This document shows positions 3,229-52,571 of a stretch of DNA of 64,000 nucleotides, one piece after another. Source of the DNA: a virus. The first letter of the stretch is position 1. Every line of letters begins with the position of its first letter. The notes below the pieces were generated by a model that was given only the letters and a program-made list of their open reading frames with translations, was not told where the DNA came from and did no database searches. A program made the position numbers and the translations under genes. Location of the stretch: IMG/VR virus record IMGVR_UViG_3300037245_003639; one strand, given 5' to 3'.

Positions 3229-3944
3229 CGATCACTCGCTGGCGGTTTCCTGAAACTCCACTCGTTGAAACCTTTAGATTCCGCCTTAAGTTTATCAGGA
3301 ATCACCGGCATTGGCTTCTGCGGAATAGCCAAATTCCCAACAAACATTGCGATCTCTTGGAACGCTGTATATGTGTCGAAAACCCTAAAAAAACCATACT
3401 TATTCAGCATGGAGTTCCATTCTATCACCCCAGTGTATCCACGGCCATGTTTATAAGCCACAAAAATGGGGCAGCGTTTTTCCATGAACATTTGTTCATA
3501 TTGAGTTTGCTGCTTAGCACATTCCCGAAAGAAATCCTCGTAATGCCGTCGAGTGCCACTACCCCACGGGAAGTGTAATCGACGCTGATATCGACCTTTC
3601 TCGTGGTAAGCCCTCAATTCTCGGGGTCGTAGATGTTGCTCCATAAAAGCATCGACTTCGGCCAAACTGAAACATTTGATGCTTAGTGTAGGTTTGGGGT
3701 CATGTTCAATCAACGGTGGGTACAATTCAATCAACGGGTAGATCTTACCGCAGAATCCGATAATATAAGCATCACCCTGATCGCCGTGACAGTTTGGAAA
3801 CGGCCATTCTTTTCGGTCGAGATGTTGTTCTTCTGGCTTGCGAACATAGACCACCGTGCGATCTTGGCCACACCCCATGATGCAGTCGTAATAGTCTTTC
3901 TGGTCCGCGATGATTCTCATGGTCCTGCCCTCATTTAACCTCAA
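3225..3944 (-). CDS. hypothetical protein
   Basis: 239-aa ORF. Confidence 0.5.
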   Translation of the reverse strand: MRLNEGRTMRIIADQKDYYDCIMGCGQDRTVVYVRKPEEQHLDRKEWPFPNCHGDQGDAYIIGFCGKIYPLIELYPPLIEHDPKPTLSIKCFSLAEVDAFMEQHLRPRELRAYHEKGRYQRRLHFPWGSGTRRHYEDFFRECAKQQTQYEQMFMEKRCPIFVAYKHGRGYTGVIEWNSMLNKYGFFRVFDTYTAFQEIAMFVGNLAIPQKPMPVIPDKLKAESKGFNEWSFRKPPASDR

Positions 3945-4266
3945 CCACCTTCGCGGTTTTTTCGCGGAGATTGAACTCGACCGTCAACAACTCTCCGTAT
4001 TCAATCCACTTCGACAAGTCCTCTTGCATGATCGTTGTCATCTCATTATCATCTATTTGGCTTCGCTCAAATCCCATATCTTCTACAGCGCGTCGAATGC
4101 AGTCAGGCGTCTTGAATGATACTCGAATGGTGTCAGGAATGTCAAGGTTAATCTCGTTGCCGTCGTCGTCCATGATAAGAACTTTCATTTTACTAACCAC
4201 CATAGTGCCAAACCAAGGTTTTCCAGACAAAGAACCCCAATTGCGATTATTGCCGCCTTCTTCCAT
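3931..4266 (-). CDS. hypothetical protein
   Basis: 111-aa ORF. Confidence 0.4.
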   Translation of the reverse strand: MEEGGNNRNWGSLSGKPWFGTMVVSKMKVLIMDDDGNEINLDIPDTIRVSFKTPDCIRRAVEDMGFERSQIDDNEMTTIMQEDLSKWIEYGELLTVEFNLREKTAKVVEVK

Positions 4267-4705: not shown

Positions 4706-4930
4706 TTAGTCAATGCAACTCCGAGCCAATTCGGCCCACCTTTGCCATTCAGACAAAGTAACTTGCTCTCTCTTTGGCTCGCTCTCTACATATGTCCCTT
4801 CGGGTTCGGGAAATATTCGCTCATAAAAGACGATGTGGCTGGTTACATCCAAAACTTTTCTTCGATCCAGATGCCATGTGCCACTCTCAGTGTTGTAACG
4901 TTCGTACACTTGACCGATTTCAGGTTTCAT
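4706..4930 (-). CDS. hypothetical protein
   Basis: Start trimmed to MKPEIGQ so the N-terminus does not run into the adjacent tRNA. Confidence 0.4.
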   Translation of the reverse strand: MKPEIGQVYERYNTESGTWHLDRRKVLDVTSHIVFYERIFPEPEGTYVESEPKREQVTLSEWQRWAELARSCID

Positions 4931-4932
4931 AA

Positions 4933-5006
4933 TGGGAGTGGTGGGATTCGAACCCACGAATCTTCGGCTTATGAGACCGCTGCCTTAACCACTTAGCTAC
5001 ACTCCC
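4933..5006 (-). tRNA. tRNA-Met(CAT)
   Basis: rc is GGGAGTGTAGCTAAGTGG...GGGTTCGAATCCCACCACTCCCA with anticodon loop CTCATAA. Confidence 0.7.
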
Positions 5007-5010
5007 AAAA

Positions 5011-5082
5011 TGGGCGAGGGAGGGATTCGAACCCTCACGAAGAGATTTTCAGCCTCTTGTGCTGCCATTACACCACCTGCCC
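5011..5082 (-). tRNA. tRNA-Phe(GAA)-like, irregular acceptor/T junction
   Basis: rc is GGGCAGGTGGTGTAATGGCAGCAC...CTGAAAA...GAGGGTTCGAATCCCTC; there is one extra nucleotide before the 3' acceptor strand. Confidence 0.5.
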
Positions 5083-5090
5083 TTTCAAAA

Positions 5091-5162
5091 TGGGACGACC
5101 GGGAGTTGAACCCGGAATGCACAGATTTTCAGTCTGCTGCCCTACCGTTAGGCCACCGTCCC
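5091..5162 (-). tRNA. tRNA-Phe(GAA)
   Basis: rc is GGGACGG...GCAGA CTGAAAA TCTGT...CCGGGTTCAACTCCCGGTCGTCCCA; clean cloverleaf. Confidence 0.7.
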
Positions 5163-5180
5163 CTTTTATTCAGTTTTCAA

Positions 5181-5254
5181 TGGGAGTAGAGGGAATCGAA
5201 CCCACGCGCTTTCGGGCAAGAACCGAATGCTCTACCTAGCTGAGCTATACTCTC
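5181..5254 (-). tRNA. tRNA-Lys(CTT), degenerate copy
   Basis: Anticodon stem TTCGG/CCGAA with loop TTCTTGC; one mismatch each in the acceptor and T stems. Confidence 0.5.
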
Positions 5255-5586
5255 GGAACAACCTTGCCTTCAGAACCTTCTCTAACCATGATGTTCTTGG
5301 GGGCTGCTTTAATTGGTTCTGGTGGCATGCCGTCCACCTGGGACTCGTCACTGTGAACCTGCAACCAGTCGTCGTTTTTGCCTTCCCGAAGTTCTGAACC
5401 AAATGATGACATTTCCTTCGGATCGCCTACTCTTAGGACCAAACAGTTCATCCCGTCCATTTTTGGAATCTCGACCACTGATACTCGGCCGATCTCGTGA
5501 AAATGTTCACCATCATGAATCACGACTGGCAAAATACCAAAAGATTCTGTTTTAGTCAAGCAATCTCGAAACTGTGTCGTATTCAT
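5245..5586 (-). CDS. hypothetical protein
   Basis: 113-aa ORF; 3' end abuts the tRNA. Confidence 0.4.
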   Translation of the reverse strand: MNTTQFRDCLTKTESFGILPVVIHDGEHFHEIGRVSVVEIPKMDGMNCLVLRVGDPKEMSSFGSELREGKNDDWLQVHSDESQVDGMPPEPIKAAPKNIMVREGSEGKVVPRV

Positions 5587-5627
5587 AGGAGTCGCCTTAT
5601 TCGTTTTTGCTGATTATTTTAGGCTAA

Positions 5628-5700
5628 TGAGGTCGCAGAGATTCGAACTCTGGTCCCGAGATTAAGAGTCTCGTGCATCTCCGACTATGCTTCGACCTCG
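5628..5700 (-). tRNA. tRNA-Lys(CTT)
   Basis: rc is GAGGTCGAAGCAT...CGAGA CTCTTAA TCTCG...CAGAGTTCGAATCTCTGCGACCTCA; all stems pair. Confidence 0.7.
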
Positions 5701-5730
5701 TTTGCTCTACCTAACTGAGCTACACTCCCA
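5701..5730 (-). pseudogene. tRNA 5' fragment (acceptor + D arm)
   Basis: rc GGGAGTGTAGCTCAGTTAGGTAGAGCA has no anticodon or T arm and resembles the 5' end of the tRNA-Met at 4933..5006. Confidence 0.45.
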
Positions 5731-5941
5731 AAACTTTTTCCAGACCAGCAACCATCTCTCTGTGGAATTCTAATCGATCTTCAACCTCTTTGCTGCTAAC
5801 CTCTGTTAGTTTAGTCTTGTTCTCCCATCCATGGGCAAGACCTCGCAAGTCCAGAAGAAAAGCACACCTGTCATTCTCTTCACTAATCGTGAAAAGGTCG
5901 ATTCCTTCTCCCAGGCAGCGAAATACCTTTAGTTTGCTCAT
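5720..5941 (-). CDS. hypothetical protein
   Basis: 73-aa ORF. Confidence 0.3.
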   Translation of the reverse strand: MSKLKVFRCLGEGIDLFTISEENDRCAFLLDLRGLAHGWENKTKLTEVSSKEVEDRLEFHREMVAGLEKVLGV

Positions 5942-6459
5942 GCAGGCATTCTTCCCAACAATTCAGCGAAGTTAGCCGAGGCACTCGATTCTGAATTAGC
6001 ATTCAAAGTCAAACGCCTTAGCGTGCTCTGTTTCACATTCGTCACCCTTAGACCGTTGCCGAGGAATAATTCAACCAGACGTTCTTTTTCTTCATAACGC
6101 CAATGCAACACAATGGCATAGTAACCATCGTCTGTCACCACTAAATCGCCGACTCGTATCATTTTTTTGGCATCGGCACTTATTCCGCGAGCCACGCTAA
6201 ACCATCTTTCTCTCATCTCTACCAACATCGCTATATTCAGCTCTACCGCGTTATCAGACACGACAGAATCTATACCGCAATGCGGACAAAGAGCCGTTGT
6301 TGGCTGCGGATCTTTTCTGCTCTTCCTGACGTATTGCTTTACATCCGTTGATGGAAAAATTCGTCCACAGTAAAAACATCCGCATTGTTCACTCTCGCCG
6401 ATCAGGGCCTTATTGTCTGACGAGATACTGTGAATCCGTTTTAGTTCTGTATCATTCAT
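5938..6459 (-). CDS. zinc-ribbon protein
   Basis: 173 aa with CGCFYCGR...CPHCG. Confidence 0.45.
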   Translation of the reverse strand: MNDTELKRIHSISSDNKALIGESEQCGCFYCGRIFPSTDVKQYVRKSRKDPQPTTALCPHCGIDSVVSDNAVELNIAMLVEMRERWFSVARGISADAKKMIRVGDLVVTDDGYYAIVLHWRYEEKERLVELFLGNGLRVTNVKQSTLRRLTLNANSESSASANFAELLGRMPA

Positions 6460-6467
6460 ATTTCACG

Positions 6468-6493
6468 TCAATCTGGGTGCGACAGGAATCGAA
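6468..6493 (-). repeat. tRNA 3' fragment, direct repeat of the 3' end of the tRNA at 6998..7068
   Basis: TGGGTGCGACAGGAATCGAACCCGCT versus TGGGTGCGACAAGAATCGAACTCGCT at 6998. Confidence 0.55.
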
Positions 6494-6983
6494 CCCGCTC
6501 TAATACCGAATCAACCGTCTGACTCAGTGAAGTATGGATCACAGAAGAACCAAATGGATGCTCAACGTAATCCTTTTTCCACAGAATATCCAGATAGTCG
6601 ATCCGGTAAGCATCGTCCGGTCTTCCGTATACTACCTTGCACCTTTCTCGGAGCCAGTAACCCAACTCAAAGTTGGTGGTCAATCCGATTAGCTCCCTGG
6701 TCCTCGGAACCCAAAACATAATACAGTCTGCAAGTTTGAGTCCAGCATATTCCCAAATCGGCAGATCAGTTCTGTCCTTATCGGATGCAGCACAGTCGGC
6801 GAACTCAGGCACGATTAAAGTACCTGCAAATCCTCGACTTCTGAATTTCTCGATTGCATCGAATCTCCAACTCGGCTGCAAATGCTGCTGGTTCCCACGA
6901 ACCGTTGGCCCTGCTAAAAAGACCACAGGGATATCGCTTCGTTCAAACTCTGACGACGGAGTTTCGTATCGAAAAACGTTCAT
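6468..6983 (-). CDS. nucleoside 2-deoxyribosyltransferase-like protein
   Basis: VVFLAGP...IVPEF motif pattern of the NDT/Rcl fold; the last 10 codons are encoded by a tRNA 3'-fragment-like sequence. Confidence 0.45.
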   Translation of the reverse strand: MNVFRYETPSSEFERSDIPVVFLAGPTVRGNQQHLQPSWRFDAIEKFRSRGFAGTLIVPEFADCAASDKDRTDLPIWEYAGLKLADCIMFWVPRTRELIGLTTNFELGYWLRERCKVVYGRPDDAYRIDYLDILWKKDYVEHPFGSSVIHTSLSQTVDSVLERVRFLSHPD

Positions 6984-6997
6984 ACGAAACTCATCAA

Positions 6998-7068
6998 TGG
7001 GTGCGACAAGAATCGAACTCGCTCAGAGAGATTAAAAGTCTCTTGTGCAGCCTTTACACCACGCACCC
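6998..7068 (-). tRNA. tRNA-Lys(TTT)
   Basis: rc is GGGTGCGTGGTGTAAAGGCTGCAC AGAGA CTTTTAA TCTCT...GAGTTCGATTCTTGTCGCACCCA. Confidence 0.65.
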
Positions 7069-7130
7069 TACATTCTGTAAGATGCGTCTGTTTATATCGT
7101 TGTCCAATCATTTCAACACCTCTTTCAAAA

Positions 7131-7203
7131 TAGGGACGGGGAGACTCGAACTCCCGACCAATCGGTTAAAAGCCGATTGCTCTACCAACTGAGCTACGTC
7201 CCT
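7131..7203 (-). tRNA. tRNA-Lys(TTT)
   Basis: rc is AGGGACGTAGCTCAGTTGGTAGAGC ATCGG CTTTTAA CCGAT...GGGAGTTCGAGTCTCCCCGTCCCTA. Confidence 0.7.
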
Positions 7204-7212
7204 AACGGTTCC

Positions 7213-7425
7213 TCAAAACTCATGAAACTCTTGTATTTCCGCTTCCATGGCCACATGGTCAAACTTCAACCATCTCGTTTTTCCCCATTGCACCCAAGCT
7301 AACCCGTCGCCAACTTCGGATTTCACCCAGATTTCGCAGCGTTTCTCTGTGAGATTTTCCAGCAAAGCCCGATGGCCGTTGCCCGCTCTGAATCGGTAAT
7401 CTTCAATTTCTCGTAGGAACATCAA
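7213..7425 (-). CDS. hypothetical protein
   Basis: 70-aa ORF. Confidence 0.3.
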   Translation of the reverse strand: MMFLREIEDYRFRAGNGHRALLENLTEKRCEIWVKSEVGDGLAWVQWGKTRWLKFDHVAMEAEIQEFHEF

Positions 7426-7616
7426 GTATAACTTCGATTCGCCGCATTATCTACGGCTGTCTTTACCGCTTGTTTCCATCCCTCCATAGAATACGGTTTA
7501 GGATGAACGAGCGTCGCCCAAATACGATCTACCAACTCGTCAGAAACAAATCGTCTAACAAGTTCCGCTTTGACCATCTCTCTGGTCCGGGCATCCATCA
7601 ATGCTTTCTTAGTCAT
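7422..7616 (-). CDS. hypothetical protein
   Basis: 64-aa ORF. Confidence 0.3.
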   Translation of the reverse strand: MTKKALMDARTREMVKAELVRRFVSDELVDRIWATLVHPKPYSMEGWKQAVKTAVDNAANRSYT

Positions 7617-7671
7617 ACTAACCTCAAATCATGGCTTATTTCTAACCTAAGCAGGGCTGCTTCCTATCTTT

Positions 7672-8019
7672 TCACTTCGGCTCTGCTCCATACATCCGAA
7701 AATATTTGAACTTCCGTGGCCACTCGTATCTCGGACAAAATGCTATCGCAACCTCTTCGTTGCCATAGTTCCCTTCACGTATGACAACATGATCTTCGAG
7801 TTTCTTGGCAGCCTCGAAATCCTTGTCGCTTACGGCGCAGACCACTTTGAAAAAAGGGCCTAAAATCCAGTCCAACATCCAATCCTTATGTTGGAACTTG
7901 CGAAAACAAGCAATCGATGCATGAGCCACGTTGACGATGGCCACCCCGAGCGGAATAGTTTCCCGCACCAGGATATACATCTTCAGTTTATCGTCTCTTA
8001 TCAACTTAGCCATATTCAC
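7672..8019 (-). CDS. pth2: peptidyl-tRNA hydrolase, PTH2 family
   Basis: KMYILVRETIPLGVAIVNVAHASIACF, KVVCAVSDKDFEAAKKL and EEVAIAFCP match the PTH2 core (compare human PTRH2 [26 protein letters not shown]). Confidence 0.6.
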   Translation of the reverse strand: MNMAKLIRDDKLKMYILVRETIPLGVAIVNVAHASIACFRKFQHKDWMLDWILGPFFKVVCAVSDKDFEAAKKLEDHVVIREGNYGNEEVAIAFCPRYEWPRKFKYFRMYGAEPK

Positions 8020-8294
8020 ACTCTACTCGATATGGCTCTCGCTGTCAACAAAAATAGCCCCCAAGCCAGATTGTGGCTTGAGGGCCTTCGCAGTTTCGAC
8101 TTATCTAAATACCGCGAGCGTTCCTCAAGCCAAGCTGTGCTTGGTAAAGCGTATAAAGCTTTGTTTCTTGAGACAACGCATCGATTCATTCCTCTTCCCG
8201 CCCATATAGAGCGGGCAACCTGCATTACTACAGGGGAGTTGTACCGCATTATACGTCGAATGTCAAGGAATTCCTCTGAAATTTCTGATAATCT

Positions 8295-9323
8295 TTAGTC
8301 CAAGGATTCCAGGAATTCCAGATGGTCGTCAATGGATTCGGGTTTTATCCACATATCGTAATCAGATTTATCCTTCATCCACGGTTCTTCATCTTTTACA
8401 CCATGAATGAGTTCCCGAATCTCGTCTGTGAAATCCAGCCGAATATATTTTTGAACAGGATCGTAAGAAACAACTCTGAGAACCACTCCTTCTTTAATGC
8501 TGTTGAAGAAGGTGCCGGTAAACATGTGAGGAACTTTCTCTGAAATTTGAGCAAAGAACGGCCCAGGGAAAAACTTGATCGGTTTTTTCACTTTGACAAG
8601 CGGGAATCGTTCCTTGTGGGCCATAGTCCACGTTAGCATGCGATTCTCTCGTTCTCGATGTTTCTTTTCAAAGTCCAAAGCGGCTTTCTTCCATTCTGTC
8701 TTGCTTTGATTGCCGGTCATACGAGTGTGATAAGCCCCCAAGATGAAACGCATACGCTTCTTGGACATGTTTTTGGCCTGTTCGACAGAGATGGTATCAG
8801 CGAAACGTTGATTGAAAACTTCGGTCATGTCATCCCATTTTTCCATGAACATCAAAGCGTTATCTCGTTCAAACCGAAACCAGTTGCTCTCTCGTTCTGT
8901 TTCCGCAAGTTCTTGCTCAATCCAACTTTCATCACGAGGGTCAAAGCCAATTTTCTGAATGAGACTTTCTAAGTTGTCTTGGGATTGTTGTGCCATTTCT
9001 TTCAGCCTTTTGTCTTTGATCTTAAGGGGGACTTCGTATCCCAATTCATGAGCGACTTCCAGAGCCTTTAATTGCACAGAAATCAAATCATATTGGAAAC
9101 GTTGTAGATTCTCAGGAGAACGAATATCATCAGGCAGAATCCAAAAGCATTCCAGTCCTGATAGTTCATTGTCTTGACATTCGAAGATAGGTATGTTTAC
9201 TATTGTTTCCCCTATTGGGGTTCGTTCGTATCTTAGGAATGTTGCTTTATCTTCTGTGAATCCTATCTCGCTATTGTAAACTATCAAAACTTCTTGTTTT
9301 GGTTCAAGTTTTCGTCTACTCAT
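8295..9323 (-). CDS. hypothetical protein
   Basis: 342-aa ORF, charged with coiled-coil-like segments. Confidence 0.5.
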   Translation of the reverse strand: MSRRKLEPKQEVLIVYNSEIGFTEDKATFLRYERTPIGETIVNIPIFECQDNELSGLECFWILPDDIRSPENLQRFQYDLISVQLKALEVAHELGYEVPLKIKDKRLKEMAQQSQDNLESLIQKIGFDPRDESWIEQELAETERESNWFRFERDNALMFMEKWDDMTEVFNQRFADTISVEQAKNMSKKRMRFILGAYHTRMTGNQSKTEWKKAALDFEKKHRERENRMLTWTMAHKERFPLVKVKKPIKFFPGPFFAQISEKVPHMFTGTFFNSIKEGVVLRVVSYDPVQKYIRLDFTDEIRELIHGVKDEEPWMKDKSDYDMWIKPESIDDHLEFLESLD

Positions 9324-9341
9324 TAAACATTATACCGCCGA

Positions 9342-9764
9342 TTACTCAATATCTTCTGTGACTAGCGCCAATTCTGCCATATATTCTTCGACAGCAGTGA
9401 TTAAATCTTCCAGAGAGTAAACGACTGGGACACCATGATATTCGCAATAACGTTCAATCTTTTCTTTACCTTTGACGGCTCCTTCTAAGCACATAACAAC
9501 TTGACCACCGCGACCCACGGCATCTCCAAATTCTAACAGTGTGGAATGTCCTTTCCATTCAGAATTCAAATAGAAAACGATAACAGCACATTTTTCTTGC
9601 ATAACTTGCAGTTGACGGGCAGTCTCGTTTGCTCGTTGGTCTTCGTCGAATTCATCGTATCCATCCACGATGGGATCAAAGACGGCGATGTCCTGTGAGA
9701 TTTCGTTTTTCAGTTTAGTGCGCCACGACATATCGGACAACCCACCAAGATATACGTCCCACAT
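9342..9764 (-). CDS. nucleoside 2-deoxyribosyltransferase-like protein
   Basis: N-terminal VYLGG...FDP plus a conserved acidic residue, as in the NDT/DNPH1 family. Confidence 0.4.
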   Translation of the reverse strand: MWDVYLGGLSDMSWRTKLKNEISQDIAVFDPIVDGYDEFDEDQRANETARQLQVMQEKCAVIVFYLNSEWKGHSTLLEFGDAVGRGGQVVMCLEGAVKGKEKIERYCEYHGVPVVYSLEDLITAVEEYMAELALVTEDIE

Positions 9765-9791
9765 CTCGTTCTCCTTTATAATGGATTTGAA

Positions 9792-9977
9792 TTAATTGTC
9801 CTTATCAGTTTTTGGTTTGTTTTTCCTTTGTTTCGGTTTTTTGATGAAGTGCGTACATAAAGGGCATCTTGCAGATAGGTGCTTCTCTGGTTCCAGTGCA
9901 TCATAATAATCACATAGCTGATCTGGAACCACTTCAAGCTGGCGCAATTCACAATACCCTTTGGTTGGCGACGGCAT
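9792..9977 (-). CDS. small zinc-ribbon protein
   Basis: 61 aa with CELRQ...CPLC. Confidence 0.25.
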   Translation of the reverse strand: MPSPTKGYCELRQLEVVPDQLCDYYDALEPEKHLSARCPLCTHFIKKPKQRKNKPKTDKDN

Positions 9978-10065
9978 TTACTCCTCCTTCCTCTATTCAA
10001 CCAACTGCCCGTGGCATCCTGCTCTGGATCGAGTCAAAATATTTCCGAGAAAAAAGAAAGGAATT

Positions 10066-10090
10066 GCTTGACATCTCTCGTATAATGGCA
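10066..10090 (+). promoter_or_regulatory. compact promoter-like motif GCTTGACATCTCTCGTATAATGG
   Basis: TTGACA and TATAAT hexamers only 7 nt apart; a near-identical 24-mer recurs at 21194. Confidence 0.45.
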
Positions 10091-10091
10091 T

Positions 10092-10293
10092 ATCTTTCTC
10101 GTGTCTCGTCGCGGTGGCGGGATACATGGAGAAGTAACGATGCTTTTGAATTCGTCCCACAACTCGTCAGCGGTTCACATCGCAGACAACGTGCGCATTA
10201 GCGTAGCCGCTAATTCCACGTAAGGTTGCAGGGCGAAATAAGGATTTTCGAGCCCTGCAACCCTAATCGGGAAGCAGGGCTTTTTTATTGGCA
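10092..10293 (+). ncRNA. putative small RNA or tRNA-array leader (paralog A)
   Basis: About 200 nt without an ORF between the promoter motif and the terminator AGCCCTGCAACC..GCAGGGCTTTTTT (10251..10287), with internal TTGCAGGGC/GCCCTGCAA hairpins. Confidence 0.35.
10251..10290 (+). terminator. intrinsic terminator
   Basis: GC-rich stem GCCCTGC..GCAGGGC followed by TTTTTTATT. Confidence 0.55.
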
Positions 10294-10319
10294 GATCGAT
10301 GTCGTAAAAGCTAAAATCA

Positions 10320-10391
10320 GGGCGCGTAGTTTAGAGGAAGAATGCTTCGTTTACACCGAAGAGGTCGCTGGTTCGAATCCAGCCGTGCCCA
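10320..10391 (+). tRNA. tRNA-Val(TAC)
   Basis: GGGCGCG...CTTCG TTTACAC CGAAG...GCTGGTTCGAATCCAGCCGTGCCCA. Confidence 0.7.
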
Positions 10392-10563
10392 GTATATAGC
10401 CTTATCTAGCACGGATGTAAAAGAATGTGGAATTACCTGAATAGACTATCTGACATTGATGAAGGGCAAGCCTGGAGATTGTTGTGTGTGTTGTCGTTTG
10501 TCACAGGGATGGTCGCATGTAACTCTCTGTGGTTATTAGTCCTTTGATCCTGGGTGGGTTTTA

Positions 10564-10625
10564 GGGTGCGTGGCTCAGCTCGTGCTTGGCCGAAAAGATC
10601 GTGGGTTCGAATCCCACCTCGCCCA
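10564..10625 (+). pseudogene. truncated tRNA-like element (about 62 nt)
   Basis: Acceptor GGGTGCG/CTCGCCC and T arm GTGGGTTCGAATCCCAC are present, but only about 30 nt lie between them, so the D and anticodon arms are incomplete. Confidence 0.4.
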
Positions 10626-10636
10626 TTAGTGAAACA

Positions 10637-10849
10637 ATGAAACGCAGAATTGAAGTCCGAAAGAAACCTGATGGCAGTGTGGATGAAGTCCTGCTTTACA
10701 TCGATGACGAGTGCGTAATGCACCTGGAGTACATGGACGACAATAAGATTTGGATTGGTCTGTATGACGGCAGAGACTATCCCACTCACGTAAGAATGGG
10801 AAGCGCCAAGCCAATCCAGACTGTGGTTGAAGACGGAAACGAAGAATGA
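10637..10849 (+). CDS. hypothetical protein
   Basis: Start trimmed to MKRRIEV downstream of the tRNA-like element. Confidence 0.4.
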   Translation: MKRRIEVRKKPDGSVDEVLLYIDDECVMHLEYMDDNKIWIGLYDGRDYPTHVRMGSAKPIQTVVEDGNEE

Positions 10850-11043
10850 AAATCGGTGATACAGTTTACGTCTTGGCAAAGGAAGACGGAACGATACTTG
10901 GCGACGGTGATGGGTTGGTGATGTCCGAAGTCGAGTTGATTGTTAAAAATGAGCTTGCTCTTAATGATAAATATTTAGGAGCCCTCAATCAATGTGATAT
11001 GTCAGAAGTCACAGTGGAGACAGTGATACTGACAAAAGTTTGA
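10846..11043 (+). CDS. hypothetical protein
   Basis: 65 aa, coupled to the upstream gene through an ATGA overlap. Confidence 0.35.
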   Translation: MKIGDTVYVLAKEDGTILGDGDGLVMSEVELIVKNELALNDKYLGALNQCDMSEVTVETVILTKV

Positions 11044-11049
11044 TCTAGA

Positions 11050-11121
11050 TCCGAGGTAGCACAACGGTAGTGCGTCGCACTGTTAATGCGATGGTTGCTG
11101 GTTCGAATCCAGCCCTCGGAG
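11050..11121 (+). tRNA. tRNA-Asn(GTT)
   Basis: TCCGAGGTAGCACAACGGTAGTGC TCGCA CTGTTAA TGCGA...GCTGGTTCGAATCCAGCCCTCGGAG. Confidence 0.7.
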
Positions 11122-11135
11122 TTTGAGAGTCGATC

Positions 11136-11209
11136 TCATCGGTAGCTCAGTTGGCCAGAGCACTTGGCTGTTAACCAGGGTGTCGCGGGTTCGAATCCCG
11201 TCCGGTGAG
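11136..11209 (+). tRNA. tRNA-Asn(GTT), second copy
   Basis: TCATCGGTAGCTCAGTTGGCCAGAGC CTTGG CTGTTAA CCAGG...GCGGGTTCGAATCCCGTCCGGTGAG. Confidence 0.6.
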
Positions 11210-11355
11210 CTTCACCCGAAAGGGTGCGAAGAGATCTTTGATAACTTAAAAGCGACGTTTTGTTTTGGCTGCGGCAGACCACAACCAGAAGGTATAATGG
11301 ACTGCCAATGCGAAAATGACGAATAACGGAAGCGACCACCTATCGCTTCCGCTAA

Positions 11356-11429
11356 GGGCGTTTGGCTCAGTTGGTTAGAGCGCATCCTTCACACGGATGA
11401 GATCACAGGTTCAAATCCTGTAACGCCCA
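11356..11429 (+). tRNA. tRNA-Val(CAC)
   Basis: GGGCGTTTGGCTCAGTTGGTTAGAGC CATCC TTCACAC GGATG...ACAGGTTCAAATCCTGTAACGCCCA. Confidence 0.75.
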
Positions 11430-11431
11430 TT

Positions 11432-11653
11432 ATGAGAGATGCAATTGTCGAAATTCTGAAATCAGGCACGGGTTGCGGAGTAGAATTCGCTGCAATGCTG
11501 TTTGTTCATCAACTGGAAGATGGGCGGTTTCGGGTTGGTTGCGAGGGAGATCACGATGAGTGGATCTTTCATAATGCAGAAATGGCCGCTATCTGCTTCT
11601 TGAATAAAAGAAGAGAGAAAGGGCTGGGATTTGATTTTGAAACGGGCGCGTAG
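11432..11653 (+). CDS. hypothetical protein
   Basis: 73-aa ORF between tRNAs. Confidence 0.35.
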   Translation: MRDAIVEILKSGTGCGVEFAAMLFVHQLEDGRFRVGCEGDHDEWIFHNAEMAAICFLNKRREKGLGFDFETGA

Positions 11654-11717
11654 CGCAGTTGGTTAGCGCACTTCGGTGACATCGAAGGGGTCGTGAGTTC
11701 AAGTCTCACCGTGCCCA
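11644..11717 (+). tRNA. tRNA-Val(GAC)
   Basis: GGGCGCGTAGCGCAGTTGGTTAGCGC CTTCG GTGACAT CGAAG...GTGAGTTCAAGTCTCACCGTGCCCA. Confidence 0.75.
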
Positions 11718-11929
11718 TTACGACATACCTTCACGCTAGTTGCTATGCAGCAAGCCGGAGGCAGCGGTCCTGGCGGGTGAACCTAACCTGTTACTCTACC
11801 GTCAGGTAAGATTACATCATGGAGTAAGGGACTGGTAACAGAGACGCCTTATTATCATGGTGCCGCTATGAAAGTCGTAACTTTTGCCGAGTGGTCTTAC
11901 CCTGAGCCCGACAGACTGCTTGGCAATTT

Positions 11930-12003
11930 GGGAGCGTAGCTCAGTTGGTTAGAGCAATTCGCTGATAACGAATAGGTCAGTGGTTCGACTCCACTCGTTC
12001 CCA
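11930..12003 (+). tRNA. tRNA-Ile(GAT)
   Basis: GGGAGCGTAGCTCAGTTGGTTAGAGC ATTCG CTGATAA CGAAT...AGTGGTTCGACTCCACTCGTTCCCA. Confidence 0.75.
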
Positions 12004-12173
12004 TTTTATCTGCATTTTCCTTGACAAAAGAACGATGACCAACCTGGCTTGGCAACGAGTATTTGAGGAAATGCGGAAATGCGTTCTTACTTGTTGTCGA
12101 TGTCACAGAGAAATTGAGTACAGGATAATTCCCGCAAAGAAAGTCACAGCCGTTTATCGCGAAAGGCAGATCG

Positions 12174-12479
12174 ATGAAACTGATGGTTGAATTAGAAGGA
12201 ACGGGATTTCCTCCTCCTTCGTCATTTGATGGACTTGAATTTGAACAGCGCAACATAAAAGAAAAACGAGATGGAAAACCAGATGGAGGGTTTTCGTTTG
12301 TCGGTTATGTCGTAATTTCTCTCGGGAGCGCTGCAAGCGGTGTAATAGGCAATTACATCTTTGCCTGGTTGAGAAGTCCAGGAGCAAAAGTGATGAGTCT
12401 CAAAATTGAAGGGGAGCGCATAAACCCTGATGATGTAGACGCCATAGCTGACGCAGTAAAAAAGAGACTCACACAGTAA
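12174..12479 (+). CDS. hypothetical protein
   Basis: 101 aa with a Gly-rich hydrophobic segment; sits between a complete tRNA-Ile and a tRNA 3' fragment. Confidence 0.4.
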   Translation: MKLMVELEGTGFPPPSSFDGLEFEQRNIKEKRDGKPDGGFSFVGYVVISLGSAASGVIGNYIFAWLRSPGAKVMSLKIEGERINPDDVDAIADAVKKRLTQ

Positions 12480-12486
12480 GGATGAA

Positions 12487-12514
12487 GTCGTTGGTTCGAC
12501 TCCAACCGTTCCCA
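12487..12514 (+). repeat. tRNA 3' fragment (T arm + acceptor), paralogous to the tRNA-Ile 3' end
   Basis: GTCGTTGGTTCGACTCCAACCGTTCCCA versus GTCAGTGGTTCGACTCCACTCGTTCCCA in tRNA-Ile, with compensatory changes in the T stem. Confidence 0.5.
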
Positions 12515-12621
12515 TTCGAGGTGAAAGATGTCTGGATGGTGGTATGTAGGAATCGCGCTGGTGGTAGTTGTAGCCCTGGTAGCTAAATGGCTATGGAACC
12601 AAATCATCAGCATCGATTAGA

Positions 12622-12693
12622 TGGCTCGTGGTCTACTGGTTACGACGCTTCCCTGATAAGGAAGAGAAGATGGTTCAATTCCATTCGAGCCAA
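12622..12693 (+). tRNA. tRNA-Ile(GAT)-like, second copy
   Basis: TGGCTCG...CTTCC CTGATAA GGAAG...GATGGTTCAATTCCATTCGAGCCAA, with a T1-A72 first pair. Confidence 0.5.
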
Positions 12694-12695
12694 TT

Positions 12696-12857
12696 TGACA
12701 GGTGGTCTAATACCGCAAGGACATGTGAGACATGCAAAAGCAGCTATCTTGGATAGGTGTCCCGTAAAATTCTAGATCTCGATACGGGTGAATCGCTCTT
12801 GCTGGGGAAAGATGGCATCTACCGGTGTCGATGTGGGTTCGAATCCCATCCTGTCAT
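12696..12857 (+). pseudogene. tRNA-like with about 80-nt internal insertion (disrupted or intron-bearing)
   Basis: 5' TGACAGGTGGTCTAATACC... and 3' ...GTGGGTTCGAATCCCATCCTGTCA halves pair as an acceptor stem but lie about 160 nt apart. Confidence 0.25.
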
Positions 12858-12860
12858 TTT

Positions 12861-12933
12861 GGGGCAGTAGCTCAGTTGGGAGAGCGCCGTCTTCGCAAGG
12901 CGGAGGTTGCGGGTTCGAATCCCGTCTGCTCCA
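12861..12933 (+). tRNA. tRNA-Ala(CGC)
   Basis: GGGGCAGTAGCTCAGTTGGGAGAGC CCGTC TTCGCAA GGCGG...GCGGGTTCGAATCCCGTCTGCTCCA, with the G3:U70 Ala identity pair. Confidence 0.75.
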
Positions 12934-12935
12934 TT

Positions 12936-13100
12936 GGGTCGGTGGCTTAATTGGTAGAGCGTGCCGTGCAGAAAGGCAAGTCGGTCATAGATGCCTAAGC
13001 CCAGGGTTAAAAGTGTATCTTAGGTGTACCCGACATGACTGGAGAACAGTCTTTAGGCAGACCTGTGGCAAGAGTATGGGTTCGAATCCCGTCCGATCCA
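12936..13100 (+). tRNA. tRNA-Ala-like with about 90-nt insertion (putative intron)
   Basis: Acceptor GGGTCGG/CCGATCC with G3:U70, D arm TGGCTTAATTGGTAGAGC and T arm ATGGGTTCGAATCCCGT are all present, but the anticodon region is interrupted by about 90 extra nt. Confidence 0.35.
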
Positions 13101-13104
13101 TTAG

Positions 13105-13311
13105 GTGAATGAAATGGTTGTATATTGCGATTGTCCGTGCCATAAACCAGGAGCGACAATACTTCACTTTGATGCCTGCTGTAGTCTTTGTCCAAAATGT
13201 GGCAAGGGTATTGTTCGTGGTTTCAAGGAACATTTTGGAACCTGCACGGGTGAGTTGCTTAACAAAGTGAAACGAAAGAGAAGGCAAAAACCAGAACCGC
13301 CTTGGGTATAA
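13105..13311 (+). CDS. Cys-rich small protein
   Basis: 68 aa with CDCPCH...CSLCPKCG. Confidence 0.4.
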   Translation: MNEMVVYCDCPCHKPGATILHFDACCSLCPKCGKGIVRGFKEHFGTCTGELLNKVKRKRRQKPEPPWV

Positions 13312-13315
13312 ATTT

Positions 13316-13388
<73 letters not shown>

Positions 13389-13390
13389 TT

Positions 13391-13672
13391 ATGAAAGAGA
13401 AAACCCTGACAGAAGTATGGACGGAATTAGACCACTGGATTTACATGCATCAAGATGGCGGCATAGTATATGACAATCACGCTCAGAATTCGTTTGAGCA
13501 AGCCGGTGGAGATTTCGATACGCTGATACTGGCTATTGAAGATCATATTGTGCAAGATGACGATGACAAGGAAGTTATAGATTGGCCGTCTGTCGAAACA
13601 ACGTATGAGCATATGGTTCAACAACCTGAGTGGACCGACAAGGATTGGAAATTCAATCCTGATTGGTTTTGA
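13391..13672 (+). CDS. hypothetical acidic protein
   Basis: Start trimmed to MKEKTLTEVW after the tRNA. Confidence 0.4.
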   Translation: MKEKTLTEVWTELDHWIYMHQDGGIVYDNHAQNSFEQAGGDFDTLILAIEDHIVQDDDDKEVIDWPSVETTYEHMVQQPEWTDKDWKFNPDWF

Positions 13673-13676
13673 GTTT

Positions 13677-13748
13677 GGGGCAGTAGCTCAATGGGAGAGC
13701 ATCGCGTTTGCAACGCGGAGGTTGAGGGTTCGAATCCCTTCTGCTCCA
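13677..13748 (+). tRNA. tRNA-Ala(TGC)
   Basis: GGGGCAGTAGCTCAATGGGAGAGC TCGCG TTTGCAA CGCGG...GAGGGTTCGAATCCCTTCTGCTCCA, with G3:U70. Confidence 0.75.
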
Positions 13749-13761
13749 TTAGGAGATTGAG

Positions 13762-13995
13762 ATGATTTTAGGACGCAATCCTAATCCTGGCCGCGTTTTA
13801 ATGGACATCGCTGATGATGCTGAATTGCGAGGTTTCCTTGATGCTGGGCGGATTCGACATGCTCAGCGAACGGGCAACTGGCCTGAGCATTTGAAACCTG
13901 GTCGGCTTATCATGCGGCTGCCAGAAGATGTTCGTAATATTCTAAAACAACTGCGGTCGAGTGACTTGACAAAGGCTCGGTATCCGTTACACTGA
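13762..13995 (+). CDS. hypothetical protein
   Basis: 77-aa ORF. Confidence 0.35.
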   Translation: MILGRNPNPGRVLMDIADDAELRGFLDAGRIRHAQRTGNWPEHLKPGRLIMRLPEDVRNILKQLRSSDLTKARYPLH

Positions 13996-14003
13996 AATAG
14001 ATT

Positions 14004-14094
14004 GGATAGGCTGGATTCCCATTGGTGCGGGACACTTGATTGCTAATCAAGGGATCGTTTCGGCGGTTTAAGAGTTCGAATCTCTTCCTATCCG
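14004..14094 (+). tRNA. tRNA-Ser(GCT)
   Basis: Class II tRNA: GGATAGG...CTTGA TTGCTAA TCAAG, long variable arm, AAGAGTTCGAATCTCTTCCTATCCG. Confidence 0.65.
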
Positions 14095-34876: not shown

Positions 34877-34894
34877 TTGTAGAGGCGGCTGTAG

Positions 34895-34962
34895 ATGAGT
34901 GTGTAACAAGTAGGTTCGAATCCTGCCAGCCGTCCTTTTTCGAGAATTGATGATGGCGCTTA
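34895..34962 (+). terminator. tRNA-like minihelix/terminator downstream of the AlaRS-like gene
   Basis: GCGGCTG..GTAGGTTCGAATCCTGCCAGCCGTCC followed by TTTTT; has an acceptor-like stem and T arm but no anticodon arm. Confidence 0.4.
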
Positions 34963-37752: not shown

Positions 37753-37800
37753 GGGTAGCCCAACAGGCAGAGGCACCGCCCTCATAAGGCGGCGGCGTTT
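37753..37800 (+). pseudogene. tRNA-Met(CAT) 5' half (acceptor + D arm + anticodon arm)
   Basis: GGTCGGGTAGCCCAACAGGCAGAGGC CCGCC CTCATAA GGCGG; no contiguous T arm, and the acceptor pairs with the upstream 3' fragment at 37608. Confidence 0.4.
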
Positions 37801-37920
37801 AAGCTGAGATTATCACTCTAATCTAACTGTGCTGGGTCGTTAGGTCAAGCGTCAGTCACAGAACCGCTGGTCGAGGGTTCAAATCCCTCCCCCTGCTTTA
37901 CTGCAATCGTTGTTTCTACT

Positions 37921-37945
37921 TTTGCGGGGGTAGCTCAGTGGCAGA
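37921..37945 (+). pseudogene. tRNA 5' fragment
   Basis: GGGGGTAGCTCAGTGGCAGAGCA has an acceptor and D arm but nothing further. Confidence 0.35.
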
Positions 37946-38020
37946 GCAAGCGTCATCAAGATGATGGCTGACTTAAACGGAGAATACTAACGACCGTGGG
38001 TCCGCCTCAGCACAAACAAT

Positions 38021-52067: not shown

Positions 52068-52571
52068 ATGAAAGATATGCCTTCCGTAATAACAATTGGA
52101 ACTCCCGGTTCTCCAGATGCATTAGGTGGAGGAACTACTGCCGACGAGACGACGACGGTTCCCGTCATTCCGCCTCAGCAGGGAGAATCTGAGGCTGAAT
52201 CTCGATTGGCCTCTGATGAGAGTACAGGCATCAGTACGGGAAGACCACGATTTCAGGATGAAGATGAACTCAACCTTGTCACTCGACAGGCTATTCAAAT
52301 GGAAGCGGTCAGGCTAATTAGAGTGGAGCAGCAAGTTGTCAACCAAAGTGAGCCGCAGTCAGCCACATCATCGAATGAAGTTGTCGCCCAGGCAACTAAT
52401 AGAACTTATGTATCACAGCAACGCATAGACGATGCCGTGAGAGCATTACAGAAACTACAACGCTCTTGTAATCATATTTATGACAAAGTTTCACGGAGAT
52501 GTCTATACTGCACAAAACATAGAAATTCGCATGTTTATGATACGACCAGAATGATTTTGAATCAAAGTTGA
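52068..52571 (+). CDS. hypothetical protein with Thr/Ser-rich N-terminus
   Basis: 167-aa ORF. Confidence 0.4.
   Translation: MKDMPSVITIGTPGSPDALGGGTTADETTTVPVIPPQQGESEAESRLASDESTGISTGRPRFQDEDELNLVTRQAIQMEAVRLIRVEQQVVNQSEPQSATSSNEVVAQATNRTYVSQQRIDDAVRALQKLQRSCNHIYDKVSRRCLYCTKHRNSHVYDTTRMILNQS

Follow-up and report, generated by a model that had tools for sequence, protein, structure and literature searches.

Partial tRNA copies bracket small inserts in the tRNA cluster of a very large phage-like genome

The window analyzed here, a 64,000-nt stretch of viral DNA (IMG/VR record IMGVR_UViG_3300037245_003639), contains the tRNA cluster, 44 genes in size, of a very large phage-like genome. The window belongs to a 403-kb contig, and the same strain is present in the samples SRR11832402 and JGI 3300043172. 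The cluster is sorted by amino acid, and neighbors with the same anticodon are common (Lys ×4, Phe ×2, Asn ×2, Ile ×2, Ala ×3; ARAGORN). At two places within it, a complete tRNA gene is followed on the same strand by inserted DNA and then by a 3′ portion of a tRNA of that type. We refer to these arrangements as the Lys and Ile brackets. The Lys bracket and its right flank comprise the following features:

6998..7068, minus strand: complete tRNA-Lys(TTT) of type B, left edge of the bracket (ARAGORN; Rfam, 56 bits)
6468..6983, minus strand: nucleoside 2-deoxyribosyltransferase-like (NDT) ORF of 171 aa, the cargo of the bracket (Pfam PF15891)
6474..6500, minus strand: 27-nt 3′ fragment of a type-B tRNA-Lys(TTT), consisting of T arm, acceptor 3′ strand, and discriminator
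5938..6459, minus strand: Zn-finger-like ORF of 173 aa (ORF173), right flank of the fragment (phrog_30788)

The tRNA-Lys and the NDT-like gene had both been named in an initial annotation made from the sequence alone, and both were recovered by profile searches. The ORF at 6468-6983 matches PF15891 with E=1.7e-7 and 32 bits, above the curated cut-off of 30, and has 585 homologues at 60 to 79% identity; PF15891 is present in 120 of 120 homologues among the matches listed. By these similarities it can be placed among the nucleoside 2-deoxyribosyltransferase-like proteins, with a function that is predicted only. The gene is conserved and widespread, and it occurs mainly outside tRNA clusters. The C-terminal tails of the homologues are not conserved, and homology of the window gene to its relatives stops at 6492-6501, exactly at the boundary of the tRNA fragment.

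This fragment (GAGCGGGTTCGATTCCTGTCGCACCCA) is identical to positions 6998-7024 at 25 of 27 sites, a match that did not arise in any of 100 shuffles, and its two mismatches are the two sides of a single T-stem pair (A-T to G-C). It begins at the variable-loop/T-stem boundary; upstream of this point, no similarity to the 5′ two thirds of the tRNA was detected (shuffle p=0.54). The fragment is translated as ERVRFLSHP, after which come D and the stop codon, and it forms the end of the NDT-like ORF. A coding near-copy of the tRNA 3′ end had been reported at 6468-6493; our alignment retains the copy and its coding role and shifts it by 6 to 7 nt. Motif scans and PHROG searches revealed no trace of a nuclease gene in the Lys bracket. 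We also considered a retro-element primer-binding site. The complement of the fragment pairs with the tRNA 3′ end, but the discriminator is then followed by GAT, not CCA, and no reverse transcriptase was found near the fragment.

The Ile bracket lies on the opposite strand:

11929..12004, plus strand: complete tRNA-Ile(GAT) of type A, left edge of the bracket (ARAGORN; Rfam, 73 bits)
12020..12190, plus strand: remnant of an HNH homing-endonuclease gene, C-terminal third only (PHROG HNH families)
12174..12479, plus strand: 101-aa ORF (ORF101) between the HNH remnant and the fragment (open reading frame)
12476..12514, plus strand: 39-nt 3′ fragment of a tRNA-Ile(GAT) allele, from anticodon loop to discriminator

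The initial annotation had described the same layout on this strand, with a tRNA-Ile, a 101-aa ORF, and a T-arm plus acceptor fragment at 12487-12514 that it took for a compensatory-mutated copy. We find all of these elements, and the homology reaches further upstream, to 12476. The fragment agrees with tRNA-Ile at 30 of 39 positions. Four differences in the T stem amount to two compensatory pairs (AGTGG/CCACT vs GTTGG/CCAAC), and the 13 nt located 5′ of this stem match at 9 positions in the register set by the T arm. Similarity ends at the TAA of the old anticodon loop (T36-A37-A38), which is the present stop codon of ORF101; upstream of 12476, no similarity to the 5′ two thirds of the tRNA was found (shuffle p=0.70). 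ORF101 has no Pfam or PHROG match and no homologue but itself among 5.8 billion proteins. It is a real open frame but an ORFan, and its coding status is uncertain. The segment at 12020-12190 matches phrog_3106 (E=3e-6) and phrog_2255, covering profile positions 198-237 of 252 only, and it resembles an HNH gene in the related contig L043 (tblastx, E=1e-11); these matches identify it as HNH. It lacks the HH(V/R)DP motif and represents the only CxxCH motif in a phage-type context within the window. No intact or other nuclease gene was detected in the tRNA cluster of the window by motif scans and PHROG searches.

Outside the called tRNA genes, the window has 11 good T-arm hairpins, against approximately 1.8 expected. 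Apparent fragments at 10601, 12833, 13076, 14070, 25564, and 34910 turned out to be full-length, unusual tRNA-like genes; the acceptor stems of such odd full-length genes are paired at 7/7 positions. Clear 3′ fragments number three, namely, the Lys and Ile pieces and a copy at 25671-25704, and each adjoins, on the downstream side, the tRNA that it resembles among the 44 candidates. A comparison of tRNA ends with the window, proposed in the initial annotation, gave the Lys and Ile pieces their top score, in each case, with the nearest upstream tRNA. The cluster also contains relics of several other sorts, among them 5′ stubs, a tRNA-like gene shortened internally, and a partial copy without cargo:

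5702..5730, minus strand: 29-nt 5′ fragment (acceptor 5′ strand plus D arm) of a type-A tRNA (blastn-short, E=8e-5)
25671..25704, plus strand: partial 3′ copy (variable region plus T arm) of tRNA-Thr(GGT) (direct sequence reading)

The 5′ stub is matched by the 5′ halves of the tRNA-Lys(CTT) at 5181 and of tRNA-Ile, and it abuts a complete tRNA-Lys(CTT) at 5628-5699, making it a mirror-image type of stub. The tRNA-Thr copy lies 5 nt behind its tRNA with no ORF between, and its T stem is longer by one compensating pair.

Judged by their sequences, the Lys and Ile fragments are genuine, local copies of tRNA parts, sharply delimited and associated with inserted DNA, and not chance resemblances. 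Both have sharp 5′ ends, and the shuffle tests, which detect no 5′ similarity, exclude evenly decayed full-length pseudogenes. All three altered T-stem pairs in the two fragments are compensatory, which indicates that the fragments derive from once-functional, diverged alleles and not from a recent copy made in place. Several other explanations were considered and rejected. The upstream tRNA is complete and not a 5′ half, as an intron-containing tRNA would require, and Rfam found no group I or II introns in the window or in the related contigs L003, L045, and L053. Neither fragment shows an intrinsic terminator or promoter signal above shuffle expectation. As for a tRNA-like structure or minihelix formed by a fragment on its own, the Lys acceptor strand finds a 7/7 partner only in the upstream tRNA, and the two GGGAGCG partners that the Ile acceptor strand has inside ORF101 yield no cloverleaf. 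An integron gene cassette would have an imperfect inverted-repeat attC-like site and an adjacent integrase, neither of which was seen; compared with attC sites, the fragments are tRNA derived and differ between cassettes.

Direct evidence of insertion comes from two sister contigs, L045 and L053, which are collinear at 88 to 96% nucleotide identity. In L053, a tRNA-Lys(TTT) is intact at 3715-3789. In L045, a block composed of tRNA-Lys(TTT)-B and a 160-aa HNH ORF occupies the place of the spacer and of that gene's first 34 nt, and homology between the contigs restarts exactly at its anticodon loop. The complete upstream tRNA in L045 is a different gene that arrived with the block, not a rebuilt target. 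L053 also carries a tRNA-Lys(TTT) that is split in the anticodon loop by 1,252 bp that contain tRNA-Met, an HNH ORF, and ORF156; when joined in silico, the halves give a 73-nt tRNA-Lys that ARAGORN calls. The Ile fragment of the window starts in the anticodon loop at the same place as this split. Between L045 and L053, cassettes are thus present or absent within conserved flanks in two separate events, both of which concern these relatives and not the inserts of the window. Insertion into tRNA genes occurs in this lineage, and insertion of a whole block is seen directly in these two contigs.

Other relatives bear on the Lys bracket. In L043, a full tRNA-Lys with the allele of the window fragment (27/27 identical) lies behind the same small upstream ORF (85% nucleotide identity). 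In L042, the same full tRNA-Lys is followed by a different ORF and then by a degenerate fragment, which has lost the T loop and starts at about the same tRNA position as that of the window. The complete tRNA-Lys of the window, which has orthologues in L042, L043, and L045, looks chimeric: its first 44 nt are nearest to L043 (2 differences, versus 5 to L042) and its last 27 nt equal L042 (0 differences, versus 2 to L043), although these difference counts are not significant. L047 has a full tRNA-Lys(TTT) directly before a 49%-identical homologue of ORF173; the last 25 nt of this tRNA match the fragment at 23 positions, and there is no NDT gene upstream of it.

The NDT gene is found in other settings as well. 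In L003, the order is tRNA-Ile, HNH, ORF, near-full-length pseudo-tRNA-Ile, NDT, and short Ile stub. The pseudo-tRNA has a perfect 3′ third and a degraded remainder, with borderline similarity along its 5′ part (p=0.07); the short stub retains the T loop only partly and has CAACCGTTCCCATTC in common with the Ile fragment of the window. In L033, the NDT gene lies between two complete, unlike tRNA-Asp genes; none of the relatives examined has the order tRNA, NDT, and full tRNA of the same type. L032 and L033 have 3′ fragments upstream of their best-matching tRNA, and 5′ stubs and mirror layouts also occur. The comparison with related genomes that the initial annotation had suggested thus yielded different cargo and the intact fragment allele. 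No close relative in which the site of either window insert is empty came to light, the flanks in L043 and L047 differing on the right or the left. Wider searches returned little. Megablast of positions 5000-14000 against GenBank phages gave only two 40-nt matches. In IMG/VR, protein-pattern scans for the NDT gene and for ORF101 brought up no usable relatives, and neither did DNA scans with either end of tRNA-Lys-B or with the 3′ end of tRNA-Ile. With the Ile 3′ end as query, a genome-collection scan found tRNA-Val genes of Eubacteriales and, in a Kofleriaceae MAG, a high-GC tRNA array that is unrelated to this one, and nothing else.

Intact HNH ORFs fill the equivalent brackets in L003, L045, and L053; the Ile bracket of the window has the C-terminal remnant, and the Lys bracket has none. 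PHROG HNH endonuclease matches were obtained for L045:2454-2936 (5e-27), L003:724-1347 (1.6e-24), a partial ORF in L043 (1.3e-13), and the window remnant (3e-6). The initial annotation had suggested looking for a recombinase or HNH partner. The HNH gene is there, as a remnant behind tRNA-Ile and intact in relatives; a recombinase beside the inserts is not.

We lean slightly toward the view that the fragments are what survives, on the 3′ side, of resident tRNA genes broken by DNA copied in from the tRNA cluster of a related phage. Recombination driven by a nuclease or a break is the likeliest route, ahead of integrase-mediated integration that rebuilds the tRNA, since no integrase or att-like cassette ends were found and 5′ stubs also occur. 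A break in a resident tRNA gene, possibly made by a nuclease, would be repaired by recombination that copies in a foreign block. The mobile unit would be a complete tRNA gene plus at least one ORF, the clearest cases including an HNH homing-endonuclease gene. Such a block would bring its own working tRNA, leaving the resident gene as a stub downstream of the cargo.

At the Ile locus, by analogy with the relatives, a block of type-A tRNA-Ile and HNH, perhaps with ORF101, would have entered the anticodon loop of a resident tRNA-Ile, and the N-terminal two thirds of the HNH gene would have disappeared afterwards; the comparison suggests this direction and sequence of events. For the Lys locus our reconstruction is weaker. 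A resident type-B tRNA-Lys(TTT), of the allele seen in L043, may have stood before ORF173 and recombined with an incoming type-B allele carrying the NDT-like gene, with the left crossover inside or upstream of the tRNA. The right joint would have been illegitimate, at the variable-loop/T-stem boundary, and would have pushed the old T arm and acceptor strand behind the NDT gene, where they became its last nine codons. The Lys event may have followed the same route as the HNH-linked cases; it bears no trace of a nuclease and is the less certain of the two. More tentatively still, an HNH family in very large phages might target the anticodon-loop region of tRNA genes while travelling with a complete, differently sequenced, and hence probably uncuttable tRNA; repeated homing would turn over the array and move passengers such as the NDT-like gene between brackets. 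If so, the tRNA array would be a gene-capture platform that operates without an integrase, and the stubs would be a readable record of past insertions. Some observations run against the block model: the tRNA cluster of the window has no intact nuclease gene and the Lys bracket no nuclease gene of any kind, a close relative with an empty site did not turn up, the Lys breakpoint differs from the anticodon-loop breakpoints of the HNH-linked cases, and given the stub order in L032 and L033 and the cargo-free copy at 25671-25704, not every stub fits.

The initial annotation had explained the layout as an integration scar, formed when a cassette enters the 3′ end of a tRNA gene and regenerates it. 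L045 and L053 bear out insertion into tRNA genes; regeneration by 3′-end integration, which implies site-specific, integrase-type recombination, finds neither a recombinase in or beside the inserts nor att-like ends. On this account, single-gene cassettes would integrate into the 3′ part of the tRNA, with the rebuilt tRNA as attL and the displaced original 3′ end as attR. The layout and polarity fit, with a complete tRNA, an insert, and a same-strand 3′ fragment (Lys, 25/27; Ile, 30/39), and the fragment allele equals the intact tRNA of L043. The Lys copies share identical blocks of 9 and 11 nt and the Ile copies blocks of 13 and 9 nt; these could be cores, but they fall on the most conserved tRNA positions anyway (T loop, shared acceptor strand). 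The breakpoints lie at classical tRNA sublocations (anticodon loop, T arm), yet they vary among the anticodon loop, the variable-loop/T-stem boundary, and the T loop. A tyrosine recombinase is present at 52568-53548, but it is the only one found, and approximately 40 and 46 kb separate it from the Ile and Lys inserts, respectively. Further, NDT sits in the Lys bracket of the window and the Ile bracket of L003 with no common noncoding flank that could serve as an att site. No conserved cassette ends accompany this gene, its flanks being unrelated in the window, L003, L004, L005, L044, L045, and L046. The 5′ stubs, the split tRNAs that keep both halves, and the unrebuilt target in L045 also count against integration, and we regard it as very improbable.

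The main rival to the block model is truncation of a redundant tRNA copy. In a cluster growing by local duplication, with birth and death of tandem copies, a complete second tRNA-Lys(TTT)-B and a complete second tRNA-Ile would have stood downstream of the ORFs; each would have lost its 5′ part through a deletion that clipped the upstream ORF, the ORFs being mere neighbors. In favor of this process are the sorted cluster, rich in same-anticodon neighbors and in many kinds of relics, the near-full-length pseudo-tRNA-Ile of L003, the NDT gene between two complete tRNA-Asp genes in L033, the complete tRNA of L047 at the position of the window Lys fragment, and the mostly extra-cluster distribution of NDT. 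However, the difference between L045 and L053 would take two independent deletions where one replacement suffices, and the split tRNA-Lys flanking a tRNA and HNH block in L053 is left unexplained. Nor does truncation predict that the window and L042 have one tRNA breakpoint but different cargo, that the full tRNA-Lys looks chimeric, or that HNH genes lie in exactly these brackets. We consider it possible but rather unlikely. A further idea is that the fragments were kept as RNA or DNA signals, with the T-arm hairpin acting in mRNA 3′ processing or stability on long transcripts that combine tRNAs and mRNAs, or the fragments acting as a decoy or recognition site for a tRNA-gene nuclease. Compensatory changes keep the T stems paired, the pseudo-tRNA-Ile of L003 is perfect only in its 3′ third, and no promoters or terminators separate the ORFs from the tRNAs, which suggests cotranscription. 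Yet descent from different functional alleles accounts for these compensatory changes, because the full tRNA of L043 has the fragment's version. In addition, the T loop is gone in the L042 copy and partial in the L003 stub, no 5′ partner strand exists except that of the upstream tRNA, making a tRNA-like fold impossible, and no T-run follows the hairpins. Retention as a signal seems to us the most doubtful of all these readings.

Insertion of tRNA-bearing blocks has parallels in known systems. Tyrosine-integrase elements, such as P4-type islands and prophages, leave a complete tRNA, an insert, and a same-strand repeat of the tRNA 3′ part, and their att scars have breakpoints in the anticodon loop or T arm. 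The brackets of the window share this anatomy; unlike those scars, they have no integrase and no conserved cassette ends, they hold only one or two genes, their breakpoints vary, 5′ stubs occur too, and the host is itself a phage-like genome. In T4-like Aeromonas phages, the nrdA and DNA polymerase genes are split. Free-standing homing-endonuclease genes can split the genes into which they insert, and HEG islands lie at exchange boundaries (PMC10448857); as in those systems, a nuclease gene inside another gene leaves pieces, and nuclease genes border mosaic segments between related phages. The broken genes here, in contrast, are tRNAs, which are useless in pieces and whose function is covered by the block-borne tRNA or by other copies in the cluster.

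A close parallel is SegB of T4, which recognizes GGTTCRANTCC, a motif of the tRNA T arm, and cuts tRNA genes (PMC2330249), driving rearrangements of tRNA and segB with truncated nuclease copies (PMC13096335). There, and on the block model here as well, a nuclease gene lies between tRNA genes, repair copies the nuclease with flanking tRNA genes, and rearranged units consist of a tRNA and a truncated nuclease gene (PMC2330249, PMC13096335). In contrast to SegB, the nucleases here are HNH and not GIY-YIG enzymes, with putative activity and target; the joints lie inside resident tRNA genes, in the anticodon loop, leaving 5′ and 3′ stubs or split tRNAs; and blocks can carry nonnuclease cargo, such as the NDT-like gene. 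The parts consulted of the work on tRNA array units of phages, plasmids, and bacteria describe their gene content and spread (PMC5966550, PMC6409571, PMC8421152), and the window, likewise part of a mobile genome, resembles such units in its dense array of dozens of tRNA genes, among which small ORFs are scattered. The present finding concerns the partial tRNA copies at the junctions with ORFs.

Very large phages characteristically carry large tRNA arrays, which current studies link to escape from tRNA-cutting host defenses; the gain, loss, and shuffling of array genes have so far been poorly described. If stubs mark insertion joints, they would offer a simple annotation marker for recombination boundaries and recently gained cargo, and they would explain odd C-terminal tails on embedded genes. 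The HNH enzymes described here have as predicted targets the tRNA-Lys(TTT) and tRNA-Ile(GAT) genes near the anticodon loop; such targeting, if confirmed, would carry the SegB precedent beyond T-even phages, both to a nuclease family unrelated to SegB and to uncultivated large phages.

The window contains two partial copies of tRNA 3' ends, each located downstream of a complete tRNA and at or just behind the end of a short ORF. On the minus strand, tRNA-Lys(TTT) (6998-7068) is followed, after a 14-nt gap, by a 171-aa ORF (6468-6983) that resembles nucleoside 2-deoxyribosyltransferases (NDT), matches Pfam PF15891 above the cut-off, and has 585 homologues. The initial annotation reported a near-copy of the tRNA 3' end in the last codons of this gene. 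Such a copy is present, with 25/27 identity to the upstream tRNA, but its position had to be corrected by 6 to 7 nt, to 6474-6500(-). It comprises the T arm, the acceptor 3' strand, and the discriminator, and it encodes nine codons of the NDT-like ORF, with one more sense codon before the stop; the two mismatches are both sides of a single T-stem pair. On the plus strand, a 101-aa ORF stands behind tRNA-Ile(GAT) (11929-12004), and a copy of the tRNA's own 3' part comes after it. Here, the T-arm and acceptor copy previously described at 12487-12514 was confirmed, its four T-stem differences forming two compensatory pairs, and the similarity reaches upstream to 12476, the TAA of the old anticodon loop, where it ends.

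In a shuffle test, the sequence upstream of either fragment does not resemble the remaining 5' two thirds of the tRNA (p=0.54 for Lys and 0.70 for Ile); both are therefore sharp truncations, and evenly decayed pseudogenes are ruled out. Among 44 candidates, the Lys and Ile fragments each score best against their own upstream tRNA. Every clear 3' fragment is the immediate downstream neighbour of the tRNA it resembles, which excludes chance and suggests that the fragments arose locally.

The surrounding array has 44 tRNA genes called by ARAGORN between 1.9 and 27.6 kb, 43 of them confirmed by Rfam, with small ORFs interspersed. For many isoacceptors in 1940-27594, two neighbouring genes represent two structural types (A: GTAGCTCAGTTGG...; B: GTGGTGTAA.GG...), as with Lys(TTT), Lys(CTT), Phe, Asn, Ile, Glu(TTC), and His. 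The array resembles two sets of tRNAs that have been interleaved.

Direct evidence of insertion into tRNA genes is provided by L045 and L053, two related contigs from one sample that are collinear, with 88-96% nucleotide identity. L053 carries an intact tRNA-Lys(TTT) at 3715-3789; at the same site in L045, a 610-bp segment, made up of a type-B tRNA-Lys(TTT) and an HNH endonuclease ORF of 160 aa, stands in place of the spacer and the resident tRNA's first 34 nt. The two contigs become homologous again exactly at the anticodon loop, whose TAA is the stop codon of the HNH gene. Since a fragment cannot revert to a full tRNA, L053 represents the older state at this site. At a second site, L053 has a tRNA-Lys(TTT) split in the anticodon loop by 1,252 bp containing a tRNA-Met and two ORFs, one for an HNH protein and one of 156 aa; when the halves are joined in silico, ARAGORN calls the product as a 73-nt tRNA-Lys. 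No introns were detected by Rfam at these loci. PHROG profiles identified HNH proteins in L045 and in two other related contigs, L003 and L043, and showed that the 49-aa ORF directly behind the window tRNA-Ile is a C-terminal HNH remnant devoid of the catalytic histidine motif. With a tRNA, a dead nuclease gene, an extra ORF, and a 3' stub starting within the anticodon loop, the Ile locus therefore has the anatomy of the events in the sister genomes.

T4 SegB, a free-standing homing endonuclease in a tRNA cluster, cleaves tRNA genes, recognizing a conserved T-arm motif (PMC2330249). It drives rearrangements in which a tRNA accompanies a truncated nuclease gene (PMC13096335), and exchange boundaries between phages often carry nuclease genes (PMC10448857). 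We propose that breaks in tRNA genes, which for the Ile-type cases at least would be the work of HNH enzymes, are repaired from a co-infecting relative. One end would pair by homology in or beside a tRNA; at the other, the junction would form at the break with no homology involved. Repair would thereby copy in a block of tRNA and ORFs, and the rest of the resident tRNA would stay as a stub.

The Lys/NDT locus fits this block-insertion layout, with support from L042, L043, and L047, but is less secure because no trace of a nuclease is present there and the breakpoint differs. L042 and L043 were the two informative contigs from one metagenome DNA scan with the tRNA-Lys 3' end. In L043, a complete type-B tRNA-Lys(TTT) lies behind the same small upstream ORF as in the window (85% nucleotide identity), and its last 27 nt are identical to the window fragment (27/27); thus, the G-C allele of the fragment exists as a working tRNA. 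L042 has a type-B tRNA with the A-T allele of the window, followed by a different ORF, homologous to window ORF 4706-4930 behind tRNA-Met. The same tRNA 3' end recurs in degenerate form as the last codons of this ORF, starting at about the same tRNA position as the window fragment. In L047, a complete tRNA-Lys(TTT), whose last 25 nt match the fragment at 23/25, directly precedes a homologue of the 173-aa ORF that the fragment precedes in the window. In its first 44 nt, the complete window tRNA-Lys is most similar to L043 (2 differences, against 5 for L042), and in its last 27 nt to L042 (0, against 2 for L043). A crossover inside the tRNA would produce this pattern, but counts this low do not reach significance.

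The NDT gene did not arrive recently with ends of its own. Homologues of it share 60-79% identity, and their C-terminal tails vary freely beyond a conserved helix; the tRNA-encoded tail is therefore tolerated rather than conserved. In most relatives the gene lies away from tRNAs, and in L004 it occupies a region syntenic with the window from which the Lys tRNAs are absent. The closest homologue (79%, L003) has a pseudo-tRNA-Ile on one side and a short 3' stub of tRNA-Ile on the other, and a tRNA-Ile(TAT) and a 5' tRNA stub bracket the gene in L045 and L053. These copies have unrelated non-coding flanks, so no att-like sequence travels with the gene. In L044, another related contig, two HNH-like genes flank the NDT gene, and about 2.7 kb upstream of it is an IS605 OrfB/TnpB-like gene with a Cas12f-like TNB domain (145-1314), suggesting that several kinds of mobile nuclease gather in this region.

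The initial annotation took the fragments for scars of single-gene cassettes integrated into tRNA 3' ends, with regeneration of the tRNA. This was partly right, in that gene insertion at tRNA genes left the fragments as scars; the enzymology it implies is probably wrong. The events look like nuclease- or break-driven recombination bringing its own tRNA. Neither a recombinase in or near the inserts nor conserved cassette ends were found, breakpoints vary, 5' stubs exist, and the upstream tRNA in L045 is a different gene, not a rebuilt target, all of which make classical integrase integration unlikely. Truncation of a redundant tandem tRNA copy is a weaker but plausible explanation, favored by an array clearly built from local duplicates and by the various tRNA relics in it. 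That the fragments act as a functional RNA signal is unlikely: the hairpin is lost in relatives, has no partner strand, and lacks terminator features.

The window sequence is also present on a 403-kb contig, and two further assemblies are 99.8-100% identical to it. IMG/VR viral contigs with homologues of the NDT-like gene measure 200-490 kb. The source is therefore taken to be a phage-like genome of very large size, although no structural phage genes occur inside the 64-kb window. The window's cargo is unusual for such a genome:

9342-9764, minus strand, second NDT-like paralogue
30573-33203, minus strand, major-vault-protein-like protein (shoulder and repeat domains)
50599-52044, plus strand, glutamine synthetase
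52568-53548, plus strand, XerC/D-like tyrosine recombinase
57395-58513 and 60466-61410, plus strand, two ADP-ribosylglycohydrolases

A T-arm scan outside the called tRNAs recovered 11 good hairpins (about 1.8 expected). Genuine stubs are few, namely, the Lys and Ile fragments and the following:

5702-5730, minus strand, 29-nt 5' stub abutting tRNA-Lys(CTT)
25671-25704, partial copy without cargo behind tRNA-Thr(GGT), from the T-arm scan

Most remaining hairpins belong to full-length, unusual tRNA-like genes with perfect acceptor stems. A tRNA-Ala-like gene (12936-13101, plus strand), uncalled by ARAGORN, has D and T arms, a perfect 7-bp acceptor stem including G3:U70, and about 91 extra nt, unique in the window, between the anticodon and T arms, with a GGCAAG direct repeat at both bounds. 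Directly before tRNA-Ala(CGC), an element at 12697-12857(+) combines a 7/7 acceptor stem (TGACAGG/CCTGTCA) and a T arm with an internal segment of about 100 nt. The span 37753-37974(+) holds a tRNA-like gene (Rfam tRNA, 26.6 bits) whose anticodon arm carries CAU and whose T arm is preceded by a 75-nt insertion. A Y-RNA-like (YrlA) match overlaps this gene, scoring 34.6 bits and thus falling short of the family threshold of 69; the window also encodes an RlaP-family RNA-repair protein (54745-55836). A 71-nt tRNA-like gene at 25518-25588(+), also uncalled by ARAGORN, has a perfect acceptor stem and an abnormal anticodon loop with CTA, and in the related contig L052 a CTA-anticodon tRNA (3920-3996) lies directly upstream of the homologue of the 173-aa ORF; both may be amber suppressor tRNAs. 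ARAGORN also missed a probable tRNA-Ser(GCT) at 14005-14094(+), which has a 7/7 acceptor stem and scores 21.7 bits with Rfam. The tRNA-like gene at 10553-10625(+) is short, at 73 nt, and defective in its middle part (26.6 bits). Outside the tRNA cluster, an element of about 48 nt (34886-34933, plus strand) joins an acceptor-like stem (GCGGCTG/CAGCCGT) to a canonical T arm, without D or anticodon arm.
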